Part shown: piece after piece, positions 1,789-53,397 of the stretch | Position numbering within the stretch: the stretch's first letter is position 1 | How the letters are laid out: each line of letters starts with the position of its first letter | Assembly: GCA_949082785.1 (NCBI GenBank) | Contig: CARVLU010000003.1 | Location: forward strand, 9,133 to 73,132 | Direction of reading: 5' to 3' | From: an uncultured Alphaproteobacteria bacterium | GTDB lineage: Bacteria; Pseudomonadota; Alphaproteobacteria; Rs-D84 | DNA length: 64,000 nucleotides | Notes under the pieces: model-generated | The model's database searches: none | What the model saw: only the letters and a program-made list of their open reading frames with translations | Told to the model about the DNA's origin: nothing | Program-made: the position numbers and the translations under genes

Positions 1789-1865
1789 TGGTGCGAGCAA
1801 AGGGGCTCGAACCCTCGACCTCAACCTTGGCAAGGTTGCGCTCTAGCCAACTGAGCTACGCTCGC
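1789..1865 (-). tRNA. tRNA-Gly (anticodon GCC)
   Basis: cloverleaf: acceptor GCGAGCG/TGCTCGC, D-loop AGTTGGCTA, anticodon loop TTGCCAA, T-loop TTCGAGC, encoded CCA. Confidence 0.9.
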
Positions 1866-13497: not shown

Positions 13498-13705
13498 CGA
13501 ATTCATTAGATTGGATTCGGGACGTCGAAAATCCCTTATTAGTCCGGCAGAAATGTCGTTAAAACATTATGGCTTTTGCCATTTCCCCGACACCAGGTCG
13601 GGTTGTTGCGGTTATACAACAGGATTTATCCGAAAACCGCAAGGTCATTGACTAATATGATTTTTCGAACTTCCCGACCACCAATATTTTGGTGGTTTTT
13701 GTTTA
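13498..13705 (+). promoter_or_regulatory. type-1a structured leader RNA (copy A) ending in intrinsic terminator GACCACCAATATTTTGGTGGTTTTT
   Basis: ~85% identical blocks with 22271-22484; 5' segment CGGGACGTCGAAAATC can pair with GATTTTTCGAACTTCCCG adjoining the terminator; conserved internal hairpins. Confidence 0.6.
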
Positions 13706-13736: not shown

Positions 13737-14192
13737 ATGAAAAAGCTGACAACATGTATTGCACTGGCCGCGATTTGCAGCCCCGCGCTGGGTATCGTCA
13801 CCAATCCCGACCTGTTGGCATGTTTATGCGATGATGCACTGACACCATCGGTCCCCCAGGGTTCATATTGTCCGGACGGAACATACTGTCCATATAAATG
13901 TCCGGGCTGCACCAATATCAATTGGACATCATCATCAACCGGGTATGAATCACGCATAAGGGCCACATGCGATATTTATTCAGGCAACTGTAACAAAACC
14001 ACCGAATATCGTTGCGCAGCCGGATATTACGGCAATACGTTAAATGGCAATTCCGGATGTTCGGCATGCCCCAGGGGCGGCACGTCCCCCGCCGGCAGCA
14101 AGTCCATAACATCATGCTATCTGCCCAATGGGACATCTGGGACCGACAGCACCGGCAGTTATGTTTATACATCAGATTGCTATTACAATTAA
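13737..14192 (+). CDS. secreted cysteine-rich protein, family member (signal peptide MKKLTTCIALAAICSPALG)
   Basis: 151 aa, 18 Cys; YRCAAGYYGN...SGCSACP...SCYLP...GSYVYTSDCYY shared module. Confidence 0.8.
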   Translation: MKKLTTCIALAAICSPALGIVTNPDLLACLCDDALTPSVPQGSYCPDGTYCPYKCPGCTNINWTSSSTGYESRIRATCDIYSGNCNKTTEYRCAAGYYGNTLNGNSGCSACPRGGTSPAGSKSITSCYLPNGTSGTDSTGSYVYTSDCYYN

Positions 14193-14447
14193 TCTGATGC
14201 CGGACAAGGCAAGAAAAAACACATCACCAACAGATAAAATCCCCGGCGAACGCCGGGGTGTCCTGGATTACTTCCGGGTCCCGCCATCGGGTTATCCCCG
14301 GTCGAAATTTTGAATATTGGGACCTTTAGAATGCCAACATTTTTTCGACCGGCCCAAAATGCCAGGGCATTCGGGCAATGGCGGGTTGTCGTTTTTGATG
14401 GTATGGTCATCGCGGTTTTCGAGAGAGAAAATCGTCCCCATCAACAA

Positions 14448-14640
14448 CAAAACCACCTGTGGATAAAGGTGGTTGGAGATTAGCAATCTATTAACAGTAA
14501 ATAGTGTCGATATTCAATATATTCTCGACTCTCCAACCCTGGTTGGATTTTTCATCTTGAAGCAAGACGACTGTTAAGGAGTGGCTAAACTCCACGATGT
14601 GAAATCCACATCGCATTTTAATTATATATAAATATTTTCT
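14448..14640 (-). ncRNA. orphan copy E of type-1b leader element (possible sRNA or decayed gene leader)
   Basis: contains hairpin with conserved loop GAATATATTGAATA, CCAACC/GGTTGGAG/CTCCAACC alternative pairing and terminator CCACCTTTATCCACAGGTGGTTTT; no cys-rich CDS downstream. Confidence 0.45.
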
Positions 14641-14707
14641 TATTTTCCAGTAAATTATAAAAAAAGAAAGGGTTAATCCCCCTTCTTTTCTACTGGTTTT
14701 TCTACAA

Positions 14708-14905
14708 AACAAAACCACCAGAAAATTCAGGTGGTTGGAGATTAGCAACTATTAACAGTAATAGTGCGATATTCAATATATTTTCGACTCTCCAACCATG
14801 TTGGACTTTTACATCATGTCAAAAGACATAACGACTGTTAATAGGTTGCTAAACCCACATCGGCAACACGCCGACACGTAATATATTATATATGTTTTTT
14901 TTGCG
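14708..14905 (-). ncRNA. orphan copy F of type-1b leader element with own TATAAT promoter
   Basis: tandem duplicate of copy E (about 85% identity), conserved loop GAAAATATATTGAATA, terminator CCACCTGAATTTTCTGGTGGTTTT. Confidence 0.45.
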
Positions 14906-15057: not shown

Positions 15058-15545
15058 TTTTCTGGATTACCGGGCGCTTACTCTCCTTTGTCATTGCGAA
15101 CGAAGTGAAGCAATCCAGTCAAATAATGAACTATTCCTTGCTATTCCTGGATTGCCGCAGTCGTTTCACTCCCTCGCAATGACAGGGGTGTTTAATTGCT
15201 CAAAACCGGGCGCTTACTCTCCTTTGTCATTGCGAACGAAGTGAAGCAATCCAGTAAATAGTGAACTATTCCTTGCTATTCCTGGATTGCCACGCGGCGA
15301 CGTTCCGTCTTGCTCGCAATGACAGGGGTGTTTAATTGCTCAAAACCGGACACTTACTCTACTTTGTCATTGCGAACGAAGTGAAGCAATCCAGTGAATA
15401 TGAACCTTGCCGCTTTCCTGGATTGCCACGCGGCGACGTTCCGTCTTGCTCGCAATGACAATGGGGATGCAGCGCCTGGCTTTGTGTCTTGCCTGCTTCA
15501 TCACACTTGTTCATTGCGAGAGAAGCGACACAATCCAGTTAATAA
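15058..15545. repeat. three and a half tandem ~140-bp repeats, each containing an inverted pair TTGTCATTGCGAACGAAGTGAAGCAATCCAG / CTGGATTGCC...CGCAATGACA
   Basis: direct inspection; related units at 43738-43839 and 44336-44545. Confidence 0.85.
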
Positions 15546-22078: not shown

Positions 22079-22155
22079 GCGCCCATAGCTTAACTGGATA
22101 AAGCATCTGACTACGGATCAGAAGACTGCGGGTTCGAATCCTTCTGGGCGCGCCA
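22079..22155 (+). tRNA. tRNA-Arg (anticodon ACG)
   Basis: acceptor GCGCCCA/TGGGCGC, anticodon loop CTACGGA, T-loop TTCGAAT, encoded CCA. Confidence 0.9.
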
Positions 22156-22235: not shown

Positions 22236-22264
22236 TTGCCTGGGTTTTAATAAACGACTATAAT
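22236..22264 (+). promoter_or_regulatory. sigma70-type promoter TTGCCT-17-TATAAT for leader B
   Basis: hexamers and spacing. Confidence 0.5.
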
Positions 22265-22270
22265 ACTTTT

Positions 22271-22484
22271 TGAATCCACGGTTGTGGGTTCGGGACTTCG
22301 AAAATCCCTTATCTGGTCGACATATTGTGTATGTCGTTATTTTGTGCGCGGCGCCTTGCCACGCCCCCCGACATTGGTCGGGTTGTTGCAGTTATACAAC
22401 AGGGGCATCGCCCCAAAGGCTGCAAGGTCATTATCAGATATGATTTTTCGAACTTCCCGACCACCAGATTCTGGTGGTTTTCTT
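22271..22484 (+). promoter_or_regulatory. type-1a structured leader RNA (copy B) ending in terminator GACCACCAGATTCTGGTGGTTTT
   Basis: homologous to 13498-13705 including GGGTTCGGGACTTCGAAAATCCC, GGTCGGGTTGTTGCAGTTATACAACAGG, GCAAGGTCATT, GATTTTTCGAACTTCCCGACCACC. Confidence 0.6.
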
Positions 22485-22497
22485 TGATAACCAAAGG

Positions 22498-23109
22498 ATG
22501 GAAGAAGTGAAGAAAATCAAACAAATAGGTAAAGTCTGGATAATGCTGACGCTGGTCATTATCCCCGGCGTGGCACGGGCGCTGTTGGTGCCACCGGTGG
22601 GCGAATGCGTGGGCGGCACATGCCCCAGCGATGGGCAATATATTGATGGCATCATGTACGGATGCGGGCGTGCAACGGAATGTTACTGCGTCAACAGTGA
22701 CGGCGAAGGAATCAATGTTCCCTGTGGATGCTTTGGCGACGCGGATTGCAAAACCAGCGGTTACGGATGTATTAACGGCCAATGCGCAAAATGCCGCAGT
22801 TGTACAAATTGTACCAGCAGCAACACCTGGGATTCTGTCGCCACCGGGTATCAACGCCGGACCACAAAAACATGTGGGTGTGACGGGACATGCAACACGT
22901 CATATTCTTACCGATGCGCACCCGGATATTTCGGCAACAGTTATAACGGCACATCGGGATGCACGCGTTGCCCGACCGACGGGGGCGTTACCGGGACATC
23001 TGTGGCGGGAACAACCGCACGAACGGGATGCTATGTCGGGGCAAACACGACGGGCCGCGATAATTCCGGGGCGTTTGAATTTACCGGAAATTCTTATTAT
23101 TGTGACTAA
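22498..23109 (+). CDS. secreted cysteine-rich protein, family member (signal peptide MEEVKKIKQIGKVWIMLTLVIIPGVARA)
   Basis: AAGGA SD 5 nt upstream; 28 Cys; CTNCTSSNTWDSVATGYQRR...YRCAPGYFGN...SGCTRCP...GAFEFTGNSYYCD shared module. Confidence 0.8.
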   Translation: MEEVKKIKQIGKVWIMLTLVIIPGVARALLVPPVGECVGGTCPSDGQYIDGIMYGCGRATECYCVNSDGEGINVPCGCFGDADCKTSGYGCINGQCAKCRSCTNCTSSNTWDSVATGYQRRTTKTCGCDGTCNTSYSYRCAPGYFGNSYNGTSGCTRCPTDGGVTGTSVAGTTARTGCYVGANTTGRDNSGAFEFTGNSYYCD

Positions 23110-39287: not shown

Positions 39288-39361
39288 TGGTTGGGGCAGC
39301 TGGATTCGAACCAACACTGACGGAGTCAGAGTCCGGAGTTCTACCGTTAAACTATGCCCCA
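39288..39361 (-). tRNA. tRNA-Gln (anticodon CUG)
   Basis: acceptor TGGGGCA/TGCCCCA, anticodon loop CTCTGAC, T-loop TTCGAAT, encoded CCA. Confidence 0.8.
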
Positions 39362-43737: not shown

Positions 43738-43839
43738 CTGGATTGCTTCGCCGATGGCTCGCAATGACAAAGGAGATGCAGTGCCAGGCAATTCAACATC
43801 CTTGTCATTGCGAGCCACGACAGTGGCGCGGCAATCCAG
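43738..43839. repeat. palindromic repeat unit pair (CTGGATTGCTTCGCC...GCTCGCAATGACAA / TTGTCATTGCGAGC...GCAATCCAG)
   Basis: same family as 15058-15545 and 44336-44545. Confidence 0.8.
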
Positions 43840-43877
43840 TCAATAAACCAACACACCTGGCGTGATATAATTCTTGA

Positions 43878-44063
43878 ACATTCGCGCGGGATGCGATATA
43901 CTGGATTCGCATTGGGAAACCGGTGTAGGCTTAGAAACCTTTTCACATCGTCGGAATCGACGTAAAACTCCAACTGTTGGTTGGGGGGCTGCGAATATAT
44001 TGAATAAGCAGCGCTATCCATGTGAATAGTTTCTAACCTCCAACCGCCCACAATGTTGTCGGG
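43878..44063 (+). promoter_or_regulatory. type-1b leader copy G upstream of XRE-like regulator: TG-extended -10 promoter, hairpin with loop GAATATATTGAATA, terminator CCGCCCACAATGTTGTCGGGCGGTGTTTTTT
   Basis: shares conserved loop and CTCCAAC/GGTTGG/CCTCCAACC alternative-pairing logic with copies C-F. Confidence 0.5.
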
Positions 44064-44097
44064 CGGTGTTTTTTATAACGTAAAAGGAGTTTAAACT

Positions 44098-44325
44098 ATG
44101 TCAAAAATATTAATCGATGCCCAGTATTACGGCAATATCATGCGCTGTGCGCGACAACATTTGAAAATCAGTGCCGGTGACGCGGCGGCATTATTGAAAA
44201 TGACCAAGAAAGATTATCTGAAATGTGAACGTGGCCGCGATTTGTTCGCAGAAGGTACCCTGCGCCGCGTTTTCCATGGTGCGTTTGCGATGTTGATTAT
44301 CAAGCGTGGCCGCGTCGCGTGTTGA
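44098..44325 (+). CDS. small XRE/Cro-like HTH DNA-binding protein (tentative)
   Basis: AAAGGAG SD 7 nt upstream; ISAGDAAALLKMTKKDYLKCERGR resembles HTH_XRE. Confidence 0.55.
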   Translation: MSKILIDAQYYGNIMRCARQHLKISAGDAAALLKMTKKDYLKCERGRDLFAEGTLRRVFHGAFAMLIIKRGRVAC

Positions 44326-44335
44326 CGTGGCGCGT

Positions 44336-44545
44336 TGTCATTGCGAGCAAGTCGCGACGCAGCGTAGCGAAGACGGACGCCGCGTGGCAATCCAGGAAAG
44401 TGACAGCGCGCATTATTCACTGGATTGCTTCGCCGGTGGCTCGCAATGACAAAGAAGATAATGGGCCTGGCTGTTAAACACCCTTGTCATTGCGAGCAAG
44501 TCGCAACGTAGCGTAGCGAAGACGGACGCCGCGTGGCAATCCAGG
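44336..44545. repeat. three palindromic repeat units (TTGTCATTGCGAGCAAGTCGC...GCGTGGCAATCCAGG family)
   Basis: direct inspection. Confidence 0.8.
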
Positions 44546-44565
44546 AAATGACAATGGTGACGAAA

Positions 44566-44591
44566 CAAAAAATCCCGCCGTGGCGGGATTG
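44566..44591 (-). terminator. rho-independent terminator of secG
   Basis: AATCCCGCCACGGCGGGATTTTTT on minus strand. Confidence 0.8.
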
Positions 44592-44596
44592 GTATC

Positions 44597-44914
44597 TTAA
44601 TTTTCCGGAACGGCGGGGGTTGGTGCCGCATTTTCCTGCATAATGATTTCCTGGCGCAAATCGCTTTGGCGGGTGGCCATGTCGGATTTCGACGCAACCA
44701 ATGCCAACGCCGCGCACAGAACAAAGAAAATTGTCGCCAGCCATGCCGTCGCCTTGGTCAGGAAATTCCCGGCCGCCGCCCCCGTCAGCGCACCGCCAAA
44801 CATCGACGCCGCCGATGAACCGGACATGCCGCTGCCTTCGGATTTCTGTAATAAAATCAGGCCCGTCATAAACACGGATACAACAATCAAGCAAACCAAT
44901 AAAATCGAAAACAT
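44597..44914 (-). CDS. secG: preprotein translocase subunit SecG
   Basis: 105 aa, two TM, Gly-rich loop LLQKSEGSGMSGSSAASMFGG. Confidence 0.9.
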   Translation of the reverse strand: MFSILLVCLIVVSVFMTGLILLQKSEGSGMSGSSAASMFGGALTGAAAGNFLTKATAWLATIFFVLCAALALVASKSDMATRQSDLRQEIIMQENAAPTPAVPEN

Positions 44915-44960
44915 TCTTTATCCTTAAATTTCTTATGTGCGAATTCTAGCCATCCTGCCC

Positions 44961-45593
44961 CTAAATTGCAAGGATTTTCAACATCGCGTCCGCGGCGGCA
45001 ATGCTGGCGGCCTTTTTCGATGCGCCGGTGCCCGTCGCAGTGTGGCCCATGGCAGTGACCGATACGCGGAACACCGGGCTGTGCGATGCGCCCGACGGTT
45101 CCAAGTATTCATACGTCGGCAATGCGCCGCCGGAATGCTTTTGCACGTATTCTTGCAGGCGGGTCTTGGGGTCTTTTGGGGCGACGGTGTCGGCGGCGGC
45201 CAAATCGCGCCACAAATCCGTGATAACGGCGGCGGCCGCATCAAAACCGCCGTCCAGATAAATGGCGCCAAAAACCGCTTCCATTGCGTCGGCCAAGATA
45301 TGCTGAATCCGGCCGCCGGTCATATGGCCGTGACGCACGCATGTGTCCAGCCCCAACTGGCCCGCGACATGCGCCAACGTGTCGGTCGATACCAGCACCG
45401 CGTGACGCCGGGCCAGTTCCCCTTCTGTTTCAGATGGGAACATCCGGTACAGCATTGTTGCCACCGTCAAGCCCAACACCCGGTCCCCAATGAATTCCAG
45501 GCGTTCGTTATTCTGGGCGGCGTTTGCGCCACTTTGCGTCAATGCCAAATCCAGCAACGACGCGTCCGTAAATGTGTAATTCAGTTTTAACAC
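44961..45593 (-). CDS. rnc: ribonuclease III
   Basis: ERLEFIGDRVLGL signature, dsRBD C-terminus. Confidence 0.95.
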   Translation of the reverse strand: MLKLNYTFTDASLLDLALTQSGANAAQNNERLEFIGDRVLGLTVATMLYRMFPSETEGELARRHAVLVSTDTLAHVAGQLGLDTCVRHGHMTGGRIQHILADAMEAVFGAIYLDGGFDAAAAVITDLWRDLAAADTVAPKDPKTRLQEYVQKHSGGALPTYEYLEPSGASHSPVFRVSVTAMGHTATGTGASKKAASIAAADAMLKILAI

Positions 45594-46481
45594 TTAATTA
45601 ATCCCCATGCCAAACCGGTCCCAGCGCATCTTGTTCCCCCAATTCCAGATGGCCAGCATCGGCGAATGATAGTTATGTGAATACCAGACAAACCATACCT
45701 TGCCCAGCAGATTGTCGCGCGGCACAAAACCAACCGGGCCGCGGCTGTCGCCACTGTTGTCGCGGTTGTCCCCCATAAAGAAGTAATGGCCGTCGGGAAC
45801 CGTGAACGCGGGCGTGTTGTCGTACATCGCGTTGTCGGAATATTCGATAATGCTGTGCGATACGCCATTGGGTAACGTTTCGGTATATTCTGTCACCTGG
45901 AACACGCCGCATTCGGTCGGGTACATGTTGCAGAAACGGTTGTCTTTGTATTCAATGGTATAATTAAAATCTACTGGGGCGTTGTCCATCCAAATCTTGT
46001 TCCCCTTTATCGAAATATTGTCGCGGTAATACCCCACACTGCGCAGTGATTTCGGCAATGTCGCAACAATATACGGCCGCGGGTCGGAACGCGCAACCTG
46101 TTGCCCGTTAATGTGCAGCCGACCGTTAATCATCTGGATGGTGTCACCGGGGCGACCAATCAAACGCTTGACATAATCCAGACGTTCATCGACCGGATTG
46201 CGGAACACCACAACATCCCCCACATCCGGTTCAGACGCCAAAAACCGCCCGTTCCACAAATGCCACGACCCAAACGGAAAAGAATAACGTGAATACCCAT
46301 ACGCCCATTTTTCGACAAAGATATGGTCCCCGATATGCAGTGTCGGAATCATGGACCCGGACGGGATATTGAACGGTTCGATTAAAATACTGCGGAACGC
46401 GATGGCAATCAGCGCCCCATAAAACAAAGTATTAAACCATTCGCGTGCTGTATTTCTGTTTTTTGCCGGCATAAAATTCAT
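45594..46481 (-). CDS. lepB: signal peptidase I
   Basis: SGSMIPTL catalytic Ser box, K box, GDNRDNSGDSR; start at MNFMPAKN (ORF-track 5' extension rejected); lepB-rnc adjacency. Confidence 0.9.
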   Translation of the reverse strand: MNFMPAKNRNTAREWFNTLFYGALIAIAFRSILIEPFNIPSGSMIPTLHIGDHIFVEKWAYGYSRYSFPFGSWHLWNGRFLASEPDVGDVVVFRNPVDERLDYVKRLIGRPGDTIQMINGRLHINGQQVARSDPRPYIVATLPKSLRSVGYYRDNISIKGNKIWMDNAPVDFNYTIEYKDNRFCNMYPTECGVFQVTEYTETLPNGVSHSIIEYSDNAMYDNTPAFTVPDGHYFFMGDNRDNSGDSRGPVGFVPRDNLLGKVWFVWYSHNYHSPMLAIWNWGNKMRWDRFGMGIN

Positions 46482-46542
46482 CCTTTCTTTGACGGATATA
46501 TTAAAACTTGAAATGAATTTGCGCAAGCTATAATATACGCAT

Positions 46543-48069
46543 ATGATTTCTTTGAATTCCATCATATTTAACGGCATGGACAGCACGCATATTGATGTCC
46601 AGGTGCAATTGTCCAGTGGCCTGTCGAAGCCTGAATTTAACATCATCGGTTTGGCCGACCGCGCGGTAAAAGAATCCGCCGAACGCATTCGCAATGTGTT
46701 GGCGGCGCTGAACCTGTCACTGCCGCCGAAACGGTTGACGGTAAATTTATCGCCGGCCGATGTTGAAAAATCCGGGTCACATTTTGATTTGCCGATATTG
46801 TGCGGGATTTTATGCGCACTGGGGGTATTGCCCGAAGAAGAAATCGGGAAATACATCATCCTGGGCGAAGTTGGTCTGAACGGCGCAATTGTAAAGGCCG
46901 GCGGCGTCTTGCCCGCCAGTGTTTGGGCCGGCGCGAACGGATACGGCATTATCTGCCCCGCGTCCCAGGGGTGCGAAGCACGCTGGGCCGGTCACACCAA
47001 CATTGTGGCCGCGGCGCATGTCTTGGACCTGATTAATCATTTCAAGGGGACGCAGATTCTGCCCATCCCGCCGATGGCCGGTCCCGCGCCCGCGGCGTCC
47101 AATTCGAACATCGACCTGGCAGAGGTACGCGGTCAACACGCCGCGAAACGCGCACTGGAAATCGCGGCCGCGGGTGGTCACGCCATGCTGATGGTGGGGC
47201 CGCCCGGGTCGGGTAAAACCATGCTGGCGTCGCGGTTGCCGACAATTATGCCGGAAATGACGGCGGACGAAATTTTGGAATCATCCATCATTTATTCCAT
47301 CGCCGGGCAATTGGACAGCCAATCTTTAATCGCCGCGCGCCCGTTTCGCAGTGTTCATCACACGTCCAGTGCGGTGGCCCTGGCGGGTGGCGGGTCGGAT
47401 GCCAGACCCGGTGAAATATCGTTGGCGCACAATGGCGTGTTGTTCCTGGACGAATTACCGGAATTCAGCCGCACGACGTTGGAAATCCTGCGCCAGCCAA
47501 TGGAATCGGGTAAAATCATGATTTCGCGGGCGCGGCGTAACGCCACGTATCCAGCACGATTTCAATTAATTGCGGCCATGAACCCATGTCCGTGCGGGCA
47601 TTTGGGCAATCCCAACATGTCTTGTTCGCGTGCGCCGCGTTGCGCGGAAGCGTACCAGAATAAAATATCGGGACCATTGTTGGACCGCATTGATTTGCAC
47701 GTTGACGTGGATGCGGTCAACCCATGGGAAATGGACCGGGTGGACGACACGCCCGCCGAATCCAGCGCAACCGTCCGCGCCCGCGTTGTGGCCGCGCGTC
47801 AAATCCAAATCACGCGCCAGGGATGCGTGAACGCGCAACTGGATGGTGCGGCATTGGATGCGGCGGTAAAATTATCGCCCGAATTGACCCAGTTTTTGAA
47901 CACCGCCGCGGAAAAGATGGGCATGTCGGCCCGCGGTTACAACCGGATAAAGCGTATTGCGCGCACGATTGCGGACCTGCGCGGGGCGGCGGATATTGAA
48001 ATGGCCGACCTGGCCGAAGCGTTGTCGTACCGGCCCATCAATCGCGGCAAATACGGCGTACGTTTATAA
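46543..48069 (+). CDS. YifB/ComM family Mg-chelatase-like AAA+ ATPase
   Basis: 508 aa; N-terminal Lon-like domain, Walker A GPPGSGKT, C-terminal Mg-chelatase domain. Confidence 0.9.
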   Translation: MISLNSIIFNGMDSTHIDVQVQLSSGLSKPEFNIIGLADRAVKESAERIRNVLAALNLSLPPKRLTVNLSPADVEKSGSHFDLPILCGILCALGVLPEEEIGKYIILGEVGLNGAIVKAGGVLPASVWAGANGYGIICPASQGCEARWAGHTNIVAAAHVLDLINHFKGTQILPIPPMAGPAPAASNSNIDLAEVRGQHAAKRALEIAAAGGHAMLMVGPPGSGKTMLASRLPTIMPEMTADEILESSIIYSIAGQLDSQSLIAARPFRSVHHTSSAVALAGGGSDARPGEISLAHNGVLFLDELPEFSRTTLEILRQPMESGKIMISRARRNATYPARFQLIAAMNPCPCGHLGNPNMSCSRAPRCAEAYQNKISGPLLDRIDLHVDVDAVNPWEMDRVDDTPAESSATVRARVVAARQIQITRQGCVNAQLDGAALDAAVKLSPELTQFLNTAAEKMGMSARGYNRIKRIARTIADLRGAADIEMADLAEALSYRPINRGKYGVRL

Positions 48070-48094
48070 AAATCCCCGCAATGGGGATTTTTTA
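48066..48094 (+). terminator. rho-independent terminator
   Basis: AAAAATCCCCGCAATGGGGATTTTTT. Confidence 0.85.
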
Positions 48095-48101
48095 ATACTT
48101 C

Positions 48102-48130
48102 TTTACTTTATGCGGTTTATCCCATATAAT
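48102..48130 (+). promoter_or_regulatory. sigma70-type promoter TTTACT-17-TATAAT for leader C
   Basis: hexamers and spacing. Confidence 0.45.
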
Positions 48131-48136
48131 ATTGAT

Positions 48137-48348
48137 GCCCGAACGTGTTGTTTGGGCGGGGCCTCATAACCTCTGATTTAGGCGTCGGAATTCATTCAAA
48201 TGGCGGGCCACGCGCACCCATTTTATGATGCAGACGAAAATAAAACTCCTGATTTTCCGGTCAGGAGGGTTGTGGAATATCAAATACGCAACGCAATTCC
48301 TAAAAATTGTTATGAGCCTCCTGACCACCAATTTGTTGGTGGTTTTTG
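48137..48348 (+). promoter_or_regulatory. type-1b structured leader RNA (copy C) with antiterminator/terminator alternative pairing and terminator CCTGACCACCAATTTGTTGGTGGTTTTT
   Basis: CTCCTGA/TCAGGAGG hairpin; GGTCAGGAGG can alternatively pair CCTCCTGACC overlapping terminator 5' arm; hairpin GTTGTGG-AATATCAAATAC-GCAAC. Confidence 0.6.
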
Positions 48349-48372
48349 CTTTGTACCACAGGAGGTTTTCAT

Positions 48373-48708
48373 ATGAAGCAACATTTAACAGTCGCCCTGG
48401 TGGCCATACCCATTTGGGCGGCGACATTACCCCACGGCATGGCCGCATGCCAAAGCATGATTCAATGCCGGCAATCCGCGGGCAACAATTGCAACTGTTG
48501 TCCGACCGGGACATCCGAAACACAATACACGTGCCCCGACGGATGGGATGCCCGCGGCAGCCAATGTTACCGGGACGCAACCCGTTCATCGGACAGCATC
48601 GGATACACCGAAACCACATACGGCACATGCGCCGGAACGGCGGGCGGCTTTGTCCAATGCTACAAAGCCCAATGCGGAAACCCGATTCCAAACTGCAAGC
48701 TTTTATAA
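48373..48708 (+). CDS. secreted cysteine-rich protein (N-module-type), family member
   Basis: GGAGG SD; signal peptide MKQHLTVALVAIPIWAATLPHGMAA; 14 Cys; ends 14 nt before next gene. Confidence 0.7.
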   Translation: MKQHLTVALVAIPIWAATLPHGMAACQSMIQCRQSAGNNCNCCPTGTSETQYTCPDGWDARGSQCYRDATRSSDSIGYTETTYGTCAGTAGGFVQCYKAQCGNPIPNCKLL

Positions 48709-48722
48709 CGGGGGTACTGGAA

Positions 48723-48998
48723 ATGAAGAAATTTGTATTCTGTGCCATCATGGCATGTATCAGCGGTGCGGCGTACGGGGCATGCACAACGGCCGGCACC
48801 ACATATTACGCGTGCAAGCCGGGGTATTATCTGTCGTCCGGAAATTGTGTCCGGTGCCCGTCATCCAGCGATGGATACGGCACAACAACGGACACCAACA
48901 CCGGCGGGCGCACATCATGCTATGTCCCGTCGGGCACCACCGGCAGCGATGGGTCGGGTTCATATACATACATGGCCAATTGCCATTATGTGGAATAA
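48723..48998 (+). CDS. secreted cysteine-rich protein (C-module-type), family member
   Basis: signal peptide MKKFVFCAIMACISGAAYG; YYACKPGYYLSSGNCVRCP...SCYVP...GSYTYMANCHY shared module. Confidence 0.7.
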   Translation: MKKFVFCAIMACISGAAYGACTTAGTTYYACKPGYYLSSGNCVRCPSSSDGYGTTTDTNTGGRTSCYVPSGTTGSDGSGSYTYMANCHYVE

Positions 48999-49015
48999 CA
49001 CGGCGATCCATAAAA

Positions 49016-49600
49016 CTATTGAATATAATAGCAATCCTGGGTGAACGTGAAACTGCCCGCGGAATCTGCCCCATTGTTCCCGGCCGCCAGATAACATGAT
49101 GTAATCGCGGTGGCCCCGGGGGCGGACGTGGCATTCATATTATGGGCGGGCGAACACTGCGTACATCCCGACGTGCCGTTGGTGGTCGTGCCCCAATAAC
49201 CGGCCGCGCATCTGTATTCCCACGATGTTTTGCATGTATTGCAATCACACCGCCGCATGGCCCGCCGTTCATATCCCGCACCCCCCGCCGACCAAGTGGC
49301 GTCACTGACACAATTGCTGCACCCGGTACAGGATTTTTCACAAACGCTGTATTCATAACTGCATCCGGTTTTGCTGTCATACCCCGTTTTTTCAACCAAA
49401 GTAAAACCGGTGCGACATGTGCGACATGTGGTCACCCGTTCCCCGTTCATGCACCCCAATGTCGTTCCATCGGAACATCCAAATATAATGGGCATCTGGC
49501 CGTCATCCGTGCAATGTTCCCATGAACACACCAGTGCATGCGCGCCGCGCACCAACATCAGATTCATCCCCGCAGCAATAACCGCAGCATATAATTTCAT
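49016..49600 (-). CDS. secreted cysteine-rich protein, family member
   Basis: AAAGGAG SD; signal peptide MKLYAAVIAAGMNLMLVRGAHA; CSNCVSDATWSAGGAGYERR...YRCAAGYWGT...SGCTQCS...GSFTFTQDCYYIQ closely parallels 22498 gene. Confidence 0.8.
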   Translation of the reverse strand: MKLYAAVIAAGMNLMLVRGAHALVCSWEHCTDDGQMPIIFGCSDGTTLGCMNGERVTTCRTCRTGFTLVEKTGYDSKTGCSYEYSVCEKSCTGCSNCVSDATWSAGGAGYERRAMRRCDCNTCKTSWEYRCAAGYWGTTTNGTSGCTQCSPAHNMNATSAPGATAITSCYLAAGNNGADSAGSFTFTQDCYYIQ

Positions 49601-49604
49601 TCAA

Positions 49605-49800
49605 ACACTCCTTTTTTCTTCAACGAATGAAAAAGCCACCAAAATTCAGGTGGCAGGAGGTTCGAAACTATCTGTAAAAAATAGCAGTGTGCTTTCAATA
49701 TATAACACACTCCCCCTGCCCGCATAAAGACAGGGTCGCTTTACGTCCGCCGACGTTTACAGAAGGGTTTCGACGCCCCGACATCGGAATTCCCGATGCT
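49605..49800 (-). promoter_or_regulatory. type-1b leader RNA copy D (minus strand) with terminator GCCACCTGAATTTTGGTGGCTTTTT
   Basis: 5' CGGGAATTCCGATGTCGGGGCGTCGAAACCC resembles copies A/B; hairpin GTGTG-TTATATATTGAAAG-CACAC; AGTTTCGAACCTCCTGCCACC before terminator. Confidence 0.55.
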
Positions 49801-49840
49801 GCTGTAATTATGTCACAATTATAAAAAATTTACCACATTT

Positions 49841-53321: not shown

Positions 53322-53397
53322 TCGGGCATAGTTCAGTCGGTAGAACAACGGACTGTTAATCCGTATGTCGCTGGTTCGAGTCCAGCTGCCCGAGCCA
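53322..53397 (+). tRNA. tRNA-Asn (anticodon GTT)
   Basis: acceptor TCGGGCA/TGCCCGA, anticodon loop CTGTTAA, T-loop TTCGAGT, encoded CCA. Confidence 0.9.

Follow-up and report, generated by a model that had tools for sequence, protein, structure and literature searches.

A putative attenuating leader RNA with overlapping terminator and antiterminator pairings, present in seven units within 64 kb of an uncultured alphaproteobacterial genome

The DNA considered here is a 64,000-nt stretch (below, the window) of contig CARVLU010000003.1 from assembly GCA_949082785.1 of an uncultured alphaproteobacterium of the order Rs-D84, and the element in question is a structured RNA unit, whose copy C occupies positions 48137..48353 of the forward strand. 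It lies directly in front of a gene (48373..48708, +) with the Shine-Dalgarno (SD) site AGGAGG, which codes for a 111-aa secreted Cys-rich protein without a Pfam family; an orthologous leader-gene pair is present in L032 (labels of this form denote related-genome, metagenome or viral loci retrieved for comparison). An earlier sequence-only reading had listed five such loci of one common architecture, copies C, D, E, F and G. All five exist at or near the coordinates given there, and the list was incomplete by two further units, at 13499-13702(+) and 22272-22484(+), which brings the total to seven units in 64 kb. The covariation, the alternative pairing, the gene context and the absence of an Rfam match all support the proposal of that reading that the loci encode an RNA which regulates in cis, like a riboswitch or an attenuator, and belongs to no known class.

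Transcription of copy C would start from a promoter at 48102..48130 (-35 TTTACT, 17-nt spacer, -10 TATAAT at 48125-48130), which gave 10 of 12 matches in the promoter scan. The whole unit on the forward strand, from the 5' hairpin P0 to the U-tract of the terminator, has a minimum free energy (MFE) of -78.1 kcal/mol, and the 12-sequence covariance model R2, a model of 144 positions with P0 left out, matches it at 48158-48344 with 64.9 bits. In the predicted fold, P0 (GCCCGAAC/GTTTGGGC, 48137..48157) is followed by the 5' strand of the helix P1 (48158..48182; P1a GGGG, P1b CTCATAAC, P1c TTTAGG), pairing with the 3' strand CCTAAA ... GTTATGAG ... CCTCC at 48299..48321; family-wide, P1b and P1c show up to four pair types. 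Enclosed by P1 are the P2 arm (CGTC...GACG with an inserted sub-hairpin, 48183..48236), the P3 helix and the hairpin P4 (48269..48292; stem GTTG(T)/(G)CAAC, interior GGAAUAUCAAAUAC), all five stem pairs of which have compensatory changes. The 5' arm of P3, CTCCTGA (48246..48252), is segment 1 (seg1), the putative anti-antiterminator strand, and its 3' arm, TCAGGAGG (48261..48268), is seg2; P3 is 95-97% paired in the family, again with compensatory changes. By complementarity seg2 may take as its partner either seg1, giving P3, or a third segment, seg3 (CCTCCTGACC, 48317..48326), giving the helix PB. The latter segment repeats seg1, overlaps the 3' strand of P1a and the 5' arm of the terminator, and participates in a three-way covariation. 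An alternative hairpin, P5 (CAAT...ATTG, 48294..48309), holds the P1c 3' strand in its loop. The unit ends with an intrinsic terminator (GACCACCAA-TTTG-TTGGTGGTT and a U-tract, 48323..48353), detected by the terminator scan with nine pairs.

The unit is about 170-215 nt long and consists of an extended -10 promoter, P0, a four-way junction P1-P4 and an intrinsic terminator. At least five of the six TATAAT positions were matched in 108 of 131 members, the consensus being TGnTAtAAT (extended -10), and the -10 element lies most often 27-28 nt 5' of P1. P0 is present as a 5' hairpin in every window copy, each time with different arm sequences. P1 is a long interrupted helix (P1a, P1b, P1c) joining the region after P0 to the region before the terminator, about 100 nt apart, and P2, P3 and P4 are the three arms within it that complete the four-way junction. 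Since P2 is absent in some members (L050), it is dispensable. The terminator, a GC-rich stem of 6-9 bp followed by a T-run, was found in all copies (the terminator scan detects C and D), and its helix is 97-100% paired family-wide.

The sequence-only reading had captured a part of this architecture. Its two-hairpin model overlooked P0, the long-range helix P1, P2 and the alternative hairpin P5, and thus was incomplete; within it, the arms of the first hairpin, P3, were correct (CTCCTGA/TCAGGAG in C, TCCAAC(C)/GGTTGGA in E, F and G), the arms of the second, P4, do differ in every copy, and a repeat of the P3 5' arm overlapping the terminator 5' arm is found in every copy. A TATAAT -10 element had been assigned to each locus, which is right for C, D, E and F, but G most likely has TATACT instead, and unit G begins about 30 nt downstream of position 43878, where it had been placed. 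The ATG said to follow closely behind the terminator is there in C, D and G, but not in E, behind which comes the promoter of F, nor in F, which has no convincing gene. The P4 loop, described as near-invariant, is so in D, E, F and G, but not in C (GGAATATCAAATAC), and family-wide it is conserved only as GA(A)UAU...AAUAA. This can be read as an internal loop, GA(A)/A, followed by the invariant mini-stem UAU/AUA; the apical loop on top is variable (3-6 nt) and in L116 accommodates an inserted hairpin. A function of the P4 loop as the start site of a mini-open reading frame (ORF) was considered and rejected; by eye, the frame and the start codon vary among E, F and G.

Folded singly, the five copies, whose mean column identity in the alignment is 57%, adopt the same layout with MFE values from -58.8 to -78.1 kcal/mol, and copy F has a z-score of -5.78 against dinucleotide shuffles. 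The covariance model R1, built from copy F alone, recovered E, D and G at E-values from 1e-16 to 1e-33 and did not recover C, while R2 recovered all five copies. With its filters off, R2 additionally matched both extra units, the sixth at 13519-13697(+) and the seventh, in its 3' part, at 22402-22479(+); the forward strand of the seventh unit is shown by its terminator and the subsequent ATG in the sequence. Matches of R1 at 22264-22481 and 14712-14902 on the opposite strand were dismissed as artefacts, the long helices being roughly symmetric. The same near-symmetry causes the antisense-strand model matches at 14712-14902(+) and 14592-14644(+), which overlie copies E and F and do not represent elements of their own.

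Relatives were collected with the protein of the neighbouring ComM gene as the anchor of a scan, which resulted in 80 loci from Candidatus Enterousia and other alphaproteobacterial gut and rumen metagenome-assembled genomes (MAGs); the MAG GCA_949093815.1 encodes the protein of the window. The window and the 80 related loci together contain 25 members according to R2. A DNA pattern for the conserved 3' half, matching 15 of the 25 known members with zero false matches in 1.4 Mb, was used for a metagenome scan and retrieved at least 120 loci; the model was applied to the first 100 of these and gave 111 matches, all of them strong. The family therefore has at least 136 members (25 + 111) in Candidatus Enterousia genomes and gut and rumen metagenomes. 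Candidatus Enterousia belongs to the order Rs-D84, uncultured gut and rumen bacteria with genomes below 1 Mb (PMC12306168).

The terminator-compatible fold is supported by covariation at each sampling depth. In a structure-blind MAFFT alignment of 12 sequences, 94.2% of the cells were paired and 18 pairs had compensatory changes, with 58 compensatory cells observed vs 18 +/- 3.4 after shuffling and only 33-52% pairing in a slid register. In the 25-member genome set the paired fraction was 95.3% (slid register, 29-50%), 31 of 37 pairs were compensatory, and 180 compensatory cells stood against 52 +/- 6 in the shuffled control. The 111-member metagenome set (109 distinct) gave 95.9% paired cells (37-49% when slid), 33 of 37 compensatory pairs and 662 compensatory cells vs 189 +/- 17. 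Every helix has compensatory changes in the 25 and the 111 members, in structure-blind as well as in model-fitted alignments, which bears out the covarying helices claimed earlier. Single positions of P1b reach four pair types in the metagenome set, for example AU 34, GC 31, CG 17 and UA 17. Because of these compensatory changes and the multiple pair types of P1b, the predicted four-way junction, including the helix P1 with its 100-nt range, is in our judgement real. The covariation therefore rules out recent duplications and repeats of the type of miniature inverted-repeat transposable elements (MITEs). A selfish or mobile MITE-like repeat, or a set of recent duplicates devoid of an RNA function, could be suspected from the several copies per 64 kb, from the cassettes that differ between close relatives (L005 is without the C and D cassettes) and from the palindromic repeats flanking the cassette of copy G. 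This explanation is extremely improbable and is effectively refuted by the counts of compensatory changes: at 57% column identity the helix arms diverge yet stay complementary, P1 covaries, unlike a sequence-conserved terminal repeat recognised by a transposase, and the units have a fixed position and orientation relative to genes and promoters.

Superimposed on this fold are three mutually complementary segments, the two arms of P3 (seg1 and seg2) and seg3, which is located just 5' of the terminator stem and overlaps both this stem and the P1a 3' strand. The seg2:seg3 helix PB (9 bp) is 95% paired with covariation, though it is outside the search model. The segments change jointly in at least six types: CUCCAAC / GUUGGAG / CUCCAAC; CUCCUGA / UCAGGAG / CUCCUGA; CCCUGUC / GGCAGGG / CCUGCC, which is the type of copy D; CUCCAAAC / GUUUGGAG / CUCCAAAC (CCAAAC) in L018 and L152, where a 1-nt insertion has occurred in each of the three segments in a coordinated manner; CUCCUGGC (CCUGGC) in L183; and CCCGAC/CCCGGC in the two extra window copies, L021 and L096. 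The alternative pairing proposed earlier, in which the repeated segment takes up the 3' arm of the first hairpin, covaries independently, through six or more sequence types and coordinated 1-nt insertions. In the CCUGA type, the UGA of seg3 is outside P1a and is hardly required by the terminator, so that PB is its only explanation. PB takes up the outer 3-5 nt of the terminator 5' arm together with the CCUCC strand of P1a. The hairpin P5 (CWAU...AUWG) holds the P1c 3' strand in its loop, and P5 and P1c are mutually exclusive because their joint formation would be a pseudoknot with a 0-nt linker. Of 103 metagenome members, 97 have complementary bases at the variable (second) pair of P5 (56 A-U and 41 U-A; about 53 expected by chance), whatever their segment type, and P5 overall is 92% paired with covariation. 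PB, P4 and P5 together make a three-way junction. From these patterns, P3, PB and the terminator appear to be mutually exclusive and all three appear to be under selection.

The same four-segment logic is known from trp-type leader-peptide attenuators, where the choice between seg1:seg2 and seg2:seg3 would be made by a translating ribosome. To this mechanism we give next to no probability: an SD-preceded ORF ending near seg1/seg2 is present in 6 of 134 members only, which rules a leader peptide out, no reading frame is conserved, and the region is filled by covarying helices.

At the decision point, when seg3 has just been transcribed, the state with P1 and P3 was calculated to be 9.2 +/- 5.2 kcal/mol more stable than the state with PB, and it was favoured in 94% of 125 members. 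Because of this difference in stability, termination would be the default and read-through would need an effector. The information content is about 1.0-1.6 bits per column in the half from seg2 to seg3 vs about 0.7-0.9 in the 5' half, and the richer sequence information of the 3' half favours an effector recognising the PB/P4/P5 domain; such an effector may act there in the way a tRNA or a protein acts in T-box and ribonucleic antiterminator (RAT) leaders, a weak indication in itself.

The interpretation which we prefer, with a probability of about 0.7, is that every locus is transcribed on its own into a 5' leader RNA, which controls the next gene by premature termination of transcription. 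In the proposed mechanism, seg1:seg2 would form P3 as the anti-antiterminator, seg2:seg3 would form PB as the antiterminator, closing the three-way junction with P4 and P5, and seg3:seg4 would form the terminator. By default, P1, P3 and the terminator would form, transcription would stop and a stable, fully paired short RNA would be released. Read-through would take place when an effector, for which an RNA-binding protein, a small ligand and a trans RNA are the candidates, favours the PB/P4/P5 junction, and it would most likely recognise the better-conserved 3' half, including the internal loop of P4. The regulon under this control would comprise secreted Cys-rich proteins specific to the lineage and small XRE-type helix-turn-helix (HTH) regulators. 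Termination, switching and the nature of the effector are what we infer, whereas the sequence features, the covariation of the two folds, the fact that these exclude each other, and the promoter and gene context are shown by the sequences themselves. The element is a genuine structured leader RNA, present in multiple copies and so far uncatalogued, whose terminator/antiterminator design is bistable, and in kind it is probably an attenuating leader RNA.

The leader position noted earlier was confirmed: an SD-preceded ORF lies directly behind 109 of the 124 members with enough flank, and in 85 of these 109 it starts 20-39 nt after the terminator stem, i.e., the 3' end of the model match. Several clusters of the downstream ORFs code for secreted Cys-rich proteins, many of them ending with ...SCYLxxGxxxxDxxGxYxYxxxCYY, while the other main group are XRE-type HTH proteins of about 75 aa, which form a 13-member cluster and a further 2-member cluster. 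The rest are mostly unannotated singletons, a few possibly being other proteins. No metabolic enzyme or transporter was recognisable among the 109 ORFs, and the Pfam search of the downstream proteins produced only a weak HTH_31 match. All 15 HTH genes are located behind leaders of the AACC type, and a 120-aa Cys-rich family has six members, of which five are behind leaders of the UGACC type and one was not typeable; this association of segment type with gene family is confounded by orthology. Orthologous leader-gene pairs persist across species, and in the window the downstream genes are located between housekeeping genes.

A number of observations weigh against attenuation in cis. The terminator fold is so strongly favoured that no unaided path to the antiterminator was found in silico, and the stability data fit a short terminated transcript as the main RNA product equally well. 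Of the 124 units, 15 are without a downstream ORF, including E, F and a five-unit tandem array in L183, which suggests a function for the free terminated RNA, as a decoy or acting in trans. The PB types may stem from few independent evolutionary events, the metagenome set was retrieved with a pattern that fixes GGAGGG and CCTCC, and P5 is compatible with P1b, P3 and the terminator, so that the covariation of P5 alone is no proof of an antiterminated state.

The units might accordingly be stand-alone small RNA (sRNA) genes, whose product, a terminated RNA of about 190 nt, would base-pair in trans or serve as a protein decoy, with a dual cis and trans role as a possibility. In this reading, the main rival or complement of the preferred one, transcription that runs on into the next gene would be incidental or secondary. 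Each unit has its own promoter and terminator, there are ORF-less tandem units (E-F, five in L183, two in L146), the fully paired terminator fold is more stable by about 9 kcal/mol, and sRNA-Xcc1, the Rfam family that comes nearest, has been detected experimentally as an RNA of 88 nt (PMC2996969) and is multi-copy and tandemly arrayed (PMC12189769, PMC8780938). Nevertheless, this explanation is unlikely, as 109 of 124 units are located 20-40 nt before a co-oriented SD-preceded ORF with no space for a second promoter, the covariation of seg1, seg2 and seg3 is self-contained and overlaps the terminator, and the stable fold is without a conserved single-stranded seed segment, the interior of P4 excepted.

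A search of the whole window against Rfam 15 (4227 families) at the gathering thresholds detected four tRNAs only, and the claim that the element belongs to no known class agrees with the fact that no Rfam family reached the threshold. Scans of the loci and three related loci with permissive E-values gave sub-threshold matches to sRNA-Xcc1 (RF02221) and otherwise noise (rimP, miRNAs, snoRNAs). The sRNA-Xcc1 scores were 31.5 bits for copy G, 30.8 bits for copy D and 34.8 bits for L005:7628-7700, as compared with the gathering threshold of 53 bits, with a local E-value of 6e-4; most members had no match at all. The match covers exactly the PB/P4/P5 (seg2-to-seg3) domain, i.e., the antiterminator fold, and corresponds to 43979-44053 in copy G. 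Searches of the literature on sRNA-Xcc1, on Xcc1 with symE and on Enterousia yielded no account of the motif.

Genuine sRNA-Xcc1 elements from viral contigs, serving as the positive control, scored 65-67 bits. In the palindromic scan of viral contigs, three of 14 tested loci were genuine (L259 3534-3621, L260 10873-10957 and L264 1794-1883), and the matches of the pattern were mostly unrelated GC-rich repeats. One of those repeats, at L230 3600-5500, is a very GC-rich tandem repeat with a period of about 180 nt and four pattern matches per strand; it is not sRNA-Xcc1 and has no connection with the present family. In L259 and L260, the sRNA-Xcc1 element forms the 5' leader of KilA-N and Bro-N antirepressor-like genes, co-oriented with them and 33-62 nt upstream, and a common GGGTCTCAAAAGCCCTT motif is located about 70-110 nt upstream of the element. 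The location in L259 and L260 suggests that, in the regulatory regions of prophages, sRNA-Xcc1 serves as a leader element in cis and not as a free-standing sRNA only. In published work, Xanthomonas cassettes have it before symE (bioRxiv 10.1101/2025.06.18.660453), the APSE phage has it before an ORF6N gene (bioRxiv 10.1101/2020.03.17.996009), and in Xylella it is arranged in tandem (PMC12189769).

The similarity to the present units extends to an outer G/C-rich helix of about 9 bp, a hairpin whose internal loop is A/U-rich (AAUA), a further, short hairpin and the spacer UUnnAA, as well as to multiple copies, tandem arrays and the leader position before a co-oriented gene. In contrast, sRNA-Xcc1 is GC-rich, has neither the 5' half (P0, P1, P2, seg1) nor a U-tract terminator overlapping the outer helix, and resides in prophages, integron cassettes and islands before Bro-N, KilA-N and symE genes, whereas the units described here precede chromosomal genes for secreted and HTH proteins. 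By the curated test the family is not a member of sRNA-Xcc1, to which it may be distantly related or else analogous.

The immI C4 RNA of phages P1 and P7 has a central segment complementary to the flanking repeats a1b1 and a2b2, and after RNA processing it blocks a ribosome-binding site. The present design is similar in opposing a central segment to two direct repeats and in having specificity types which arise through a coordinated change of three segments; it differs in that C4 blocks a ribosome-binding site, while here the pairing would disrupt a terminator. The Rfam models C4 and c4-a1b1 gave a single match, to c4-a1b1 (11.3 bits, E = 5.1), and the resemblance is in logic only. That the family is simply a distant sRNA-Xcc1 member, or a C4-like antisense immunity system, is improbable. 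It is in line with the same layout of the seg2-to-seg3 domain in the three members matching RF02221, with the leader position of genuine Xcc1 before Bro-N, KilA-N and symE genes and with segment types that recall heteroimmune specificity; opposed to it are scores below 53 bits, the many members without a match, the missing 5' half and overlapping terminator in genuine Xcc1, the different gene context and the failure of the C4 models.

An attenuating leader has close parallels in the classical terminator/antiterminator leaders with an anti-antiterminator, namely the trp-type, pyr/PyrR, T-box and bgl/sac RAT systems. The 1:2 / 2:3 / 3:4 arrangement of segments and an intrinsic terminator just upstream of the ORF are common to them and the present family, and the default termination with a less stable antiterminator that needs stabilisation resembles T-box and RAT. 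The family differs from all of them in having no leader peptide and no T-box, RAT or PyrR signature, and in that the anti-antiterminator is one arm of a four-way junction, whose closing helix bridges about 100 nt.

Four-way junctions are also the basis of the SAM-I and yybP-ykoY riboswitches, and c-di-GMP-I (GEMM-I) riboswitches occur in many copies per genome before genes for surface and secreted proteins. With the former the present units have in common a multi-helix junction with conserved internal loops and a P1 3' strand shared with the expression platform, but they resemble neither class in sequence or by model and are not associated with genes of metabolism or transport, P2 is dispensable and P4 is swapped between subtypes. 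With GEMM-I they share the multiple copies and the surface or secreted rather than metabolic genes, but their fold is unrelated to it, and the Rfam search gave no match. A covarying structured domain is present, and so are, in silico, a terminator and an antiterminator sharing nucleotides with the sensor; genes from one pathway or transport function are not.

A true small-molecule or second-messenger riboswitch, in which the ligand would either lock P1 and P3 (OFF) or bind PB/P4/P5 (ON), is a rather doubtful reading. A large covarying core with conserved junction and internal-loop nucleotides beside the terminator/antiterminator platform would suit it, as would the GEMM-I-like distribution of many copies per genome before surface and secreted proteins. 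It is difficult to reconcile with the lack of an enzyme or a transporter among the 109 downstream ORFs, with the replacement of the P4 domain in the copies at 13499 and 22272 and in L096, with the dispensable P2, and with an aptamer-like fold that is favoured already in the ligand-free state, which is atypical for OFF switches. The earlier hint of ligand sensing was not substantiated, and the gene context gives neither a metabolic hint nor any other clue to the effector.

It is conceivable, and here we are tentative, that the leaders are a new class of signal-responsive leader RNA under which a regulon of surface and secreted proteins is placed as under a master control, either as a riboswitch for a ligand or messenger or as a network in which free copies act on others. 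The segment types would then define sub-regulons as in phage heteroimmunity, the orphan and tandem units would be trans decoys or activators, and the family would be the ancestral complete form of the sRNA-Xcc1 module. The hosts of that regulon are uncultured gut symbionts with genomes below 1 Mb and few regulators, and because seven units are present in 64 kb the element is probably one of the main regulatory devices of the organism. The Cys-rich proteins that it would govern are lineage-specific and fast-evolving and are the likeliest candidates for a role in contact with a host or a partner cell. A 136-member family with strong covariation and selection on both folds is a good orphan candidate for a new ligand or an RNA-binding antiterminator, and the link to sRNA-Xcc1 leads to the testable idea that this widely annotated "sRNA" acts as a cis leader element.

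The other copies of the window have the following features. Copy D (49626..49798, -; R2 106.9 bits and MFE fold) has its -10 TATAAT at 49818-49823, seg1 CCCTGTC at 49729..49735, and seg2 GGCAGGGGG at 49712..49720, which pairs with seg1 or, using G-U, with seg3. The latter (CCTCCTGCC, 49652-49660) overlaps the terminator GCCACC-TGAATTTT-GGTGGC with its U-tract, seg3 and the terminator together extending over 49626..49660 (-; terminator scan). The gene behind D (49016..49600, -) codes for a 194-aa secreted Cys-rich protein with the C-terminal ...SCYLAAGNNGADSAGSFTFTQDCYYIQ and without a Pfam family, for which 15 homologues only were found among 5.8 billion proteins searched, all of them unnamed alphaproteobacterial MAG proteins. 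Between C and D, behind the gene of copy C, lies a second small Cys-rich gene (48725-48998, +). The four Cys-rich genes of the window, 13737-14192(+), 48373-48708(+), 48725-48998(+) and 49016-49600(-), have a common C-terminal ...SCY(L/V)xxGxxGxDxxGS(Y/F)xYxxxC(Y/H)Y and no Pfam match.

Copies E and F form a tandem on the reverse strand. Copy E (14705..14875, -; R2 103.5 bits; -10 TATAAT at 14885-14890) is followed by the promoter of F and no ORF, and its segments within 14733..14805 are TCCAAC (seg1, 14800-14805), GTTGGAGAG (seg2, 14788-14796) and CTCCAACC (seg3, 14733-14740). Copy F (14442..14613, -; R2 98.7 bits; -10 TATAAT at 14621-14626) is the copy with the z-score given above and has, within 14471..14547, seg1 TCCAACC (14541-14547), seg2 GGTTGGAGAG (14529-14538) and seg3 CTCCAACC (14471-14478). 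Tandem arrays with a spacing of about 200 nt were also seen in L183 (8480-9380, +; five units) and L146 (2310-2651, -; two units); each of their units carries a TATAAT-like -10, some have degenerate terminators, and the arrays end before a small HTH gene.

Copy G (43910..44076, +; R2 131.2 bits and fold) extends from P0 (CATTGG-GAAA-CCGGTG, 43910-43925) to the terminator, and its promoter is most likely TTGAAC-17-TATACT at 43874..43902 (+; promoter scan), with the same arrangement in the L005 orthologues. Its segments within 43968..44045 (+) are CTCCAAC (seg1, 43968-43974), GGTTGGGGG (seg2, 43979-43987) and CCTCCAACC (seg3, 44037-44045), and the gene behind it (44098..44325, +) codes for a 75-aa XRE-type HTH protein with a weak HTH_31 match of 17.5 bits, which is under the cut-off.

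Copies H (13499..13702, +; R2 30.7 bits and fold) and A (22272..22484, +; sequence, fold and the partial R2 match) belong to a divergent subtype, which probably corresponds to the "type 1a" of the sequence-only reading. They keep the scaffold of P0, P1, P2, P3, seg3 and terminator with the segments CCCCGAC/GUCGG(G)/CCCGACC (in H, seg1 CCCCGAC, seg2 GTCGG and seg3 CCCGACC), and their P4 is swapped for a larger, different domain (GUUGUUGCGGUUAUACAACAGG...CCGCAAGG). Copy H is followed by the Cys-rich gene at 13737-14192(+), and the terminator of copy A, CCACCAGATTCTGGTGG, by an ATG at 22498, which starts a gene for a small membrane or secreted protein.

Palindromic repeats of the form GCTCGCAATGACAAAGGAG...CCTTGTCATTGCGAGC are present at 15092-15521, 43757-43815 and 44339-44497 of the window, bracketing the leader and HTH cassette of copy G, with several copies just upstream of copy E, which hints that leader-gene cassettes occupy repeat-flanked variable spots. 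In L005, the closest relative (ComM 94% identical), a second leader and HTH cassette is present where the window has the C and D cassettes (L005 7576-7715(+) and 11851-11994(-), compared with window 43926-49779). This swap indicates that leader-gene cassettes turn over between close relatives, the housekeeping flanks remaining constant. The tRNA genes of the window are located at 1792-1865(-), 22079-22152(+), 39291-39361(-) and 53322-53394(+), and the second of them precedes the start of copy A (22272) by about 120 nt.

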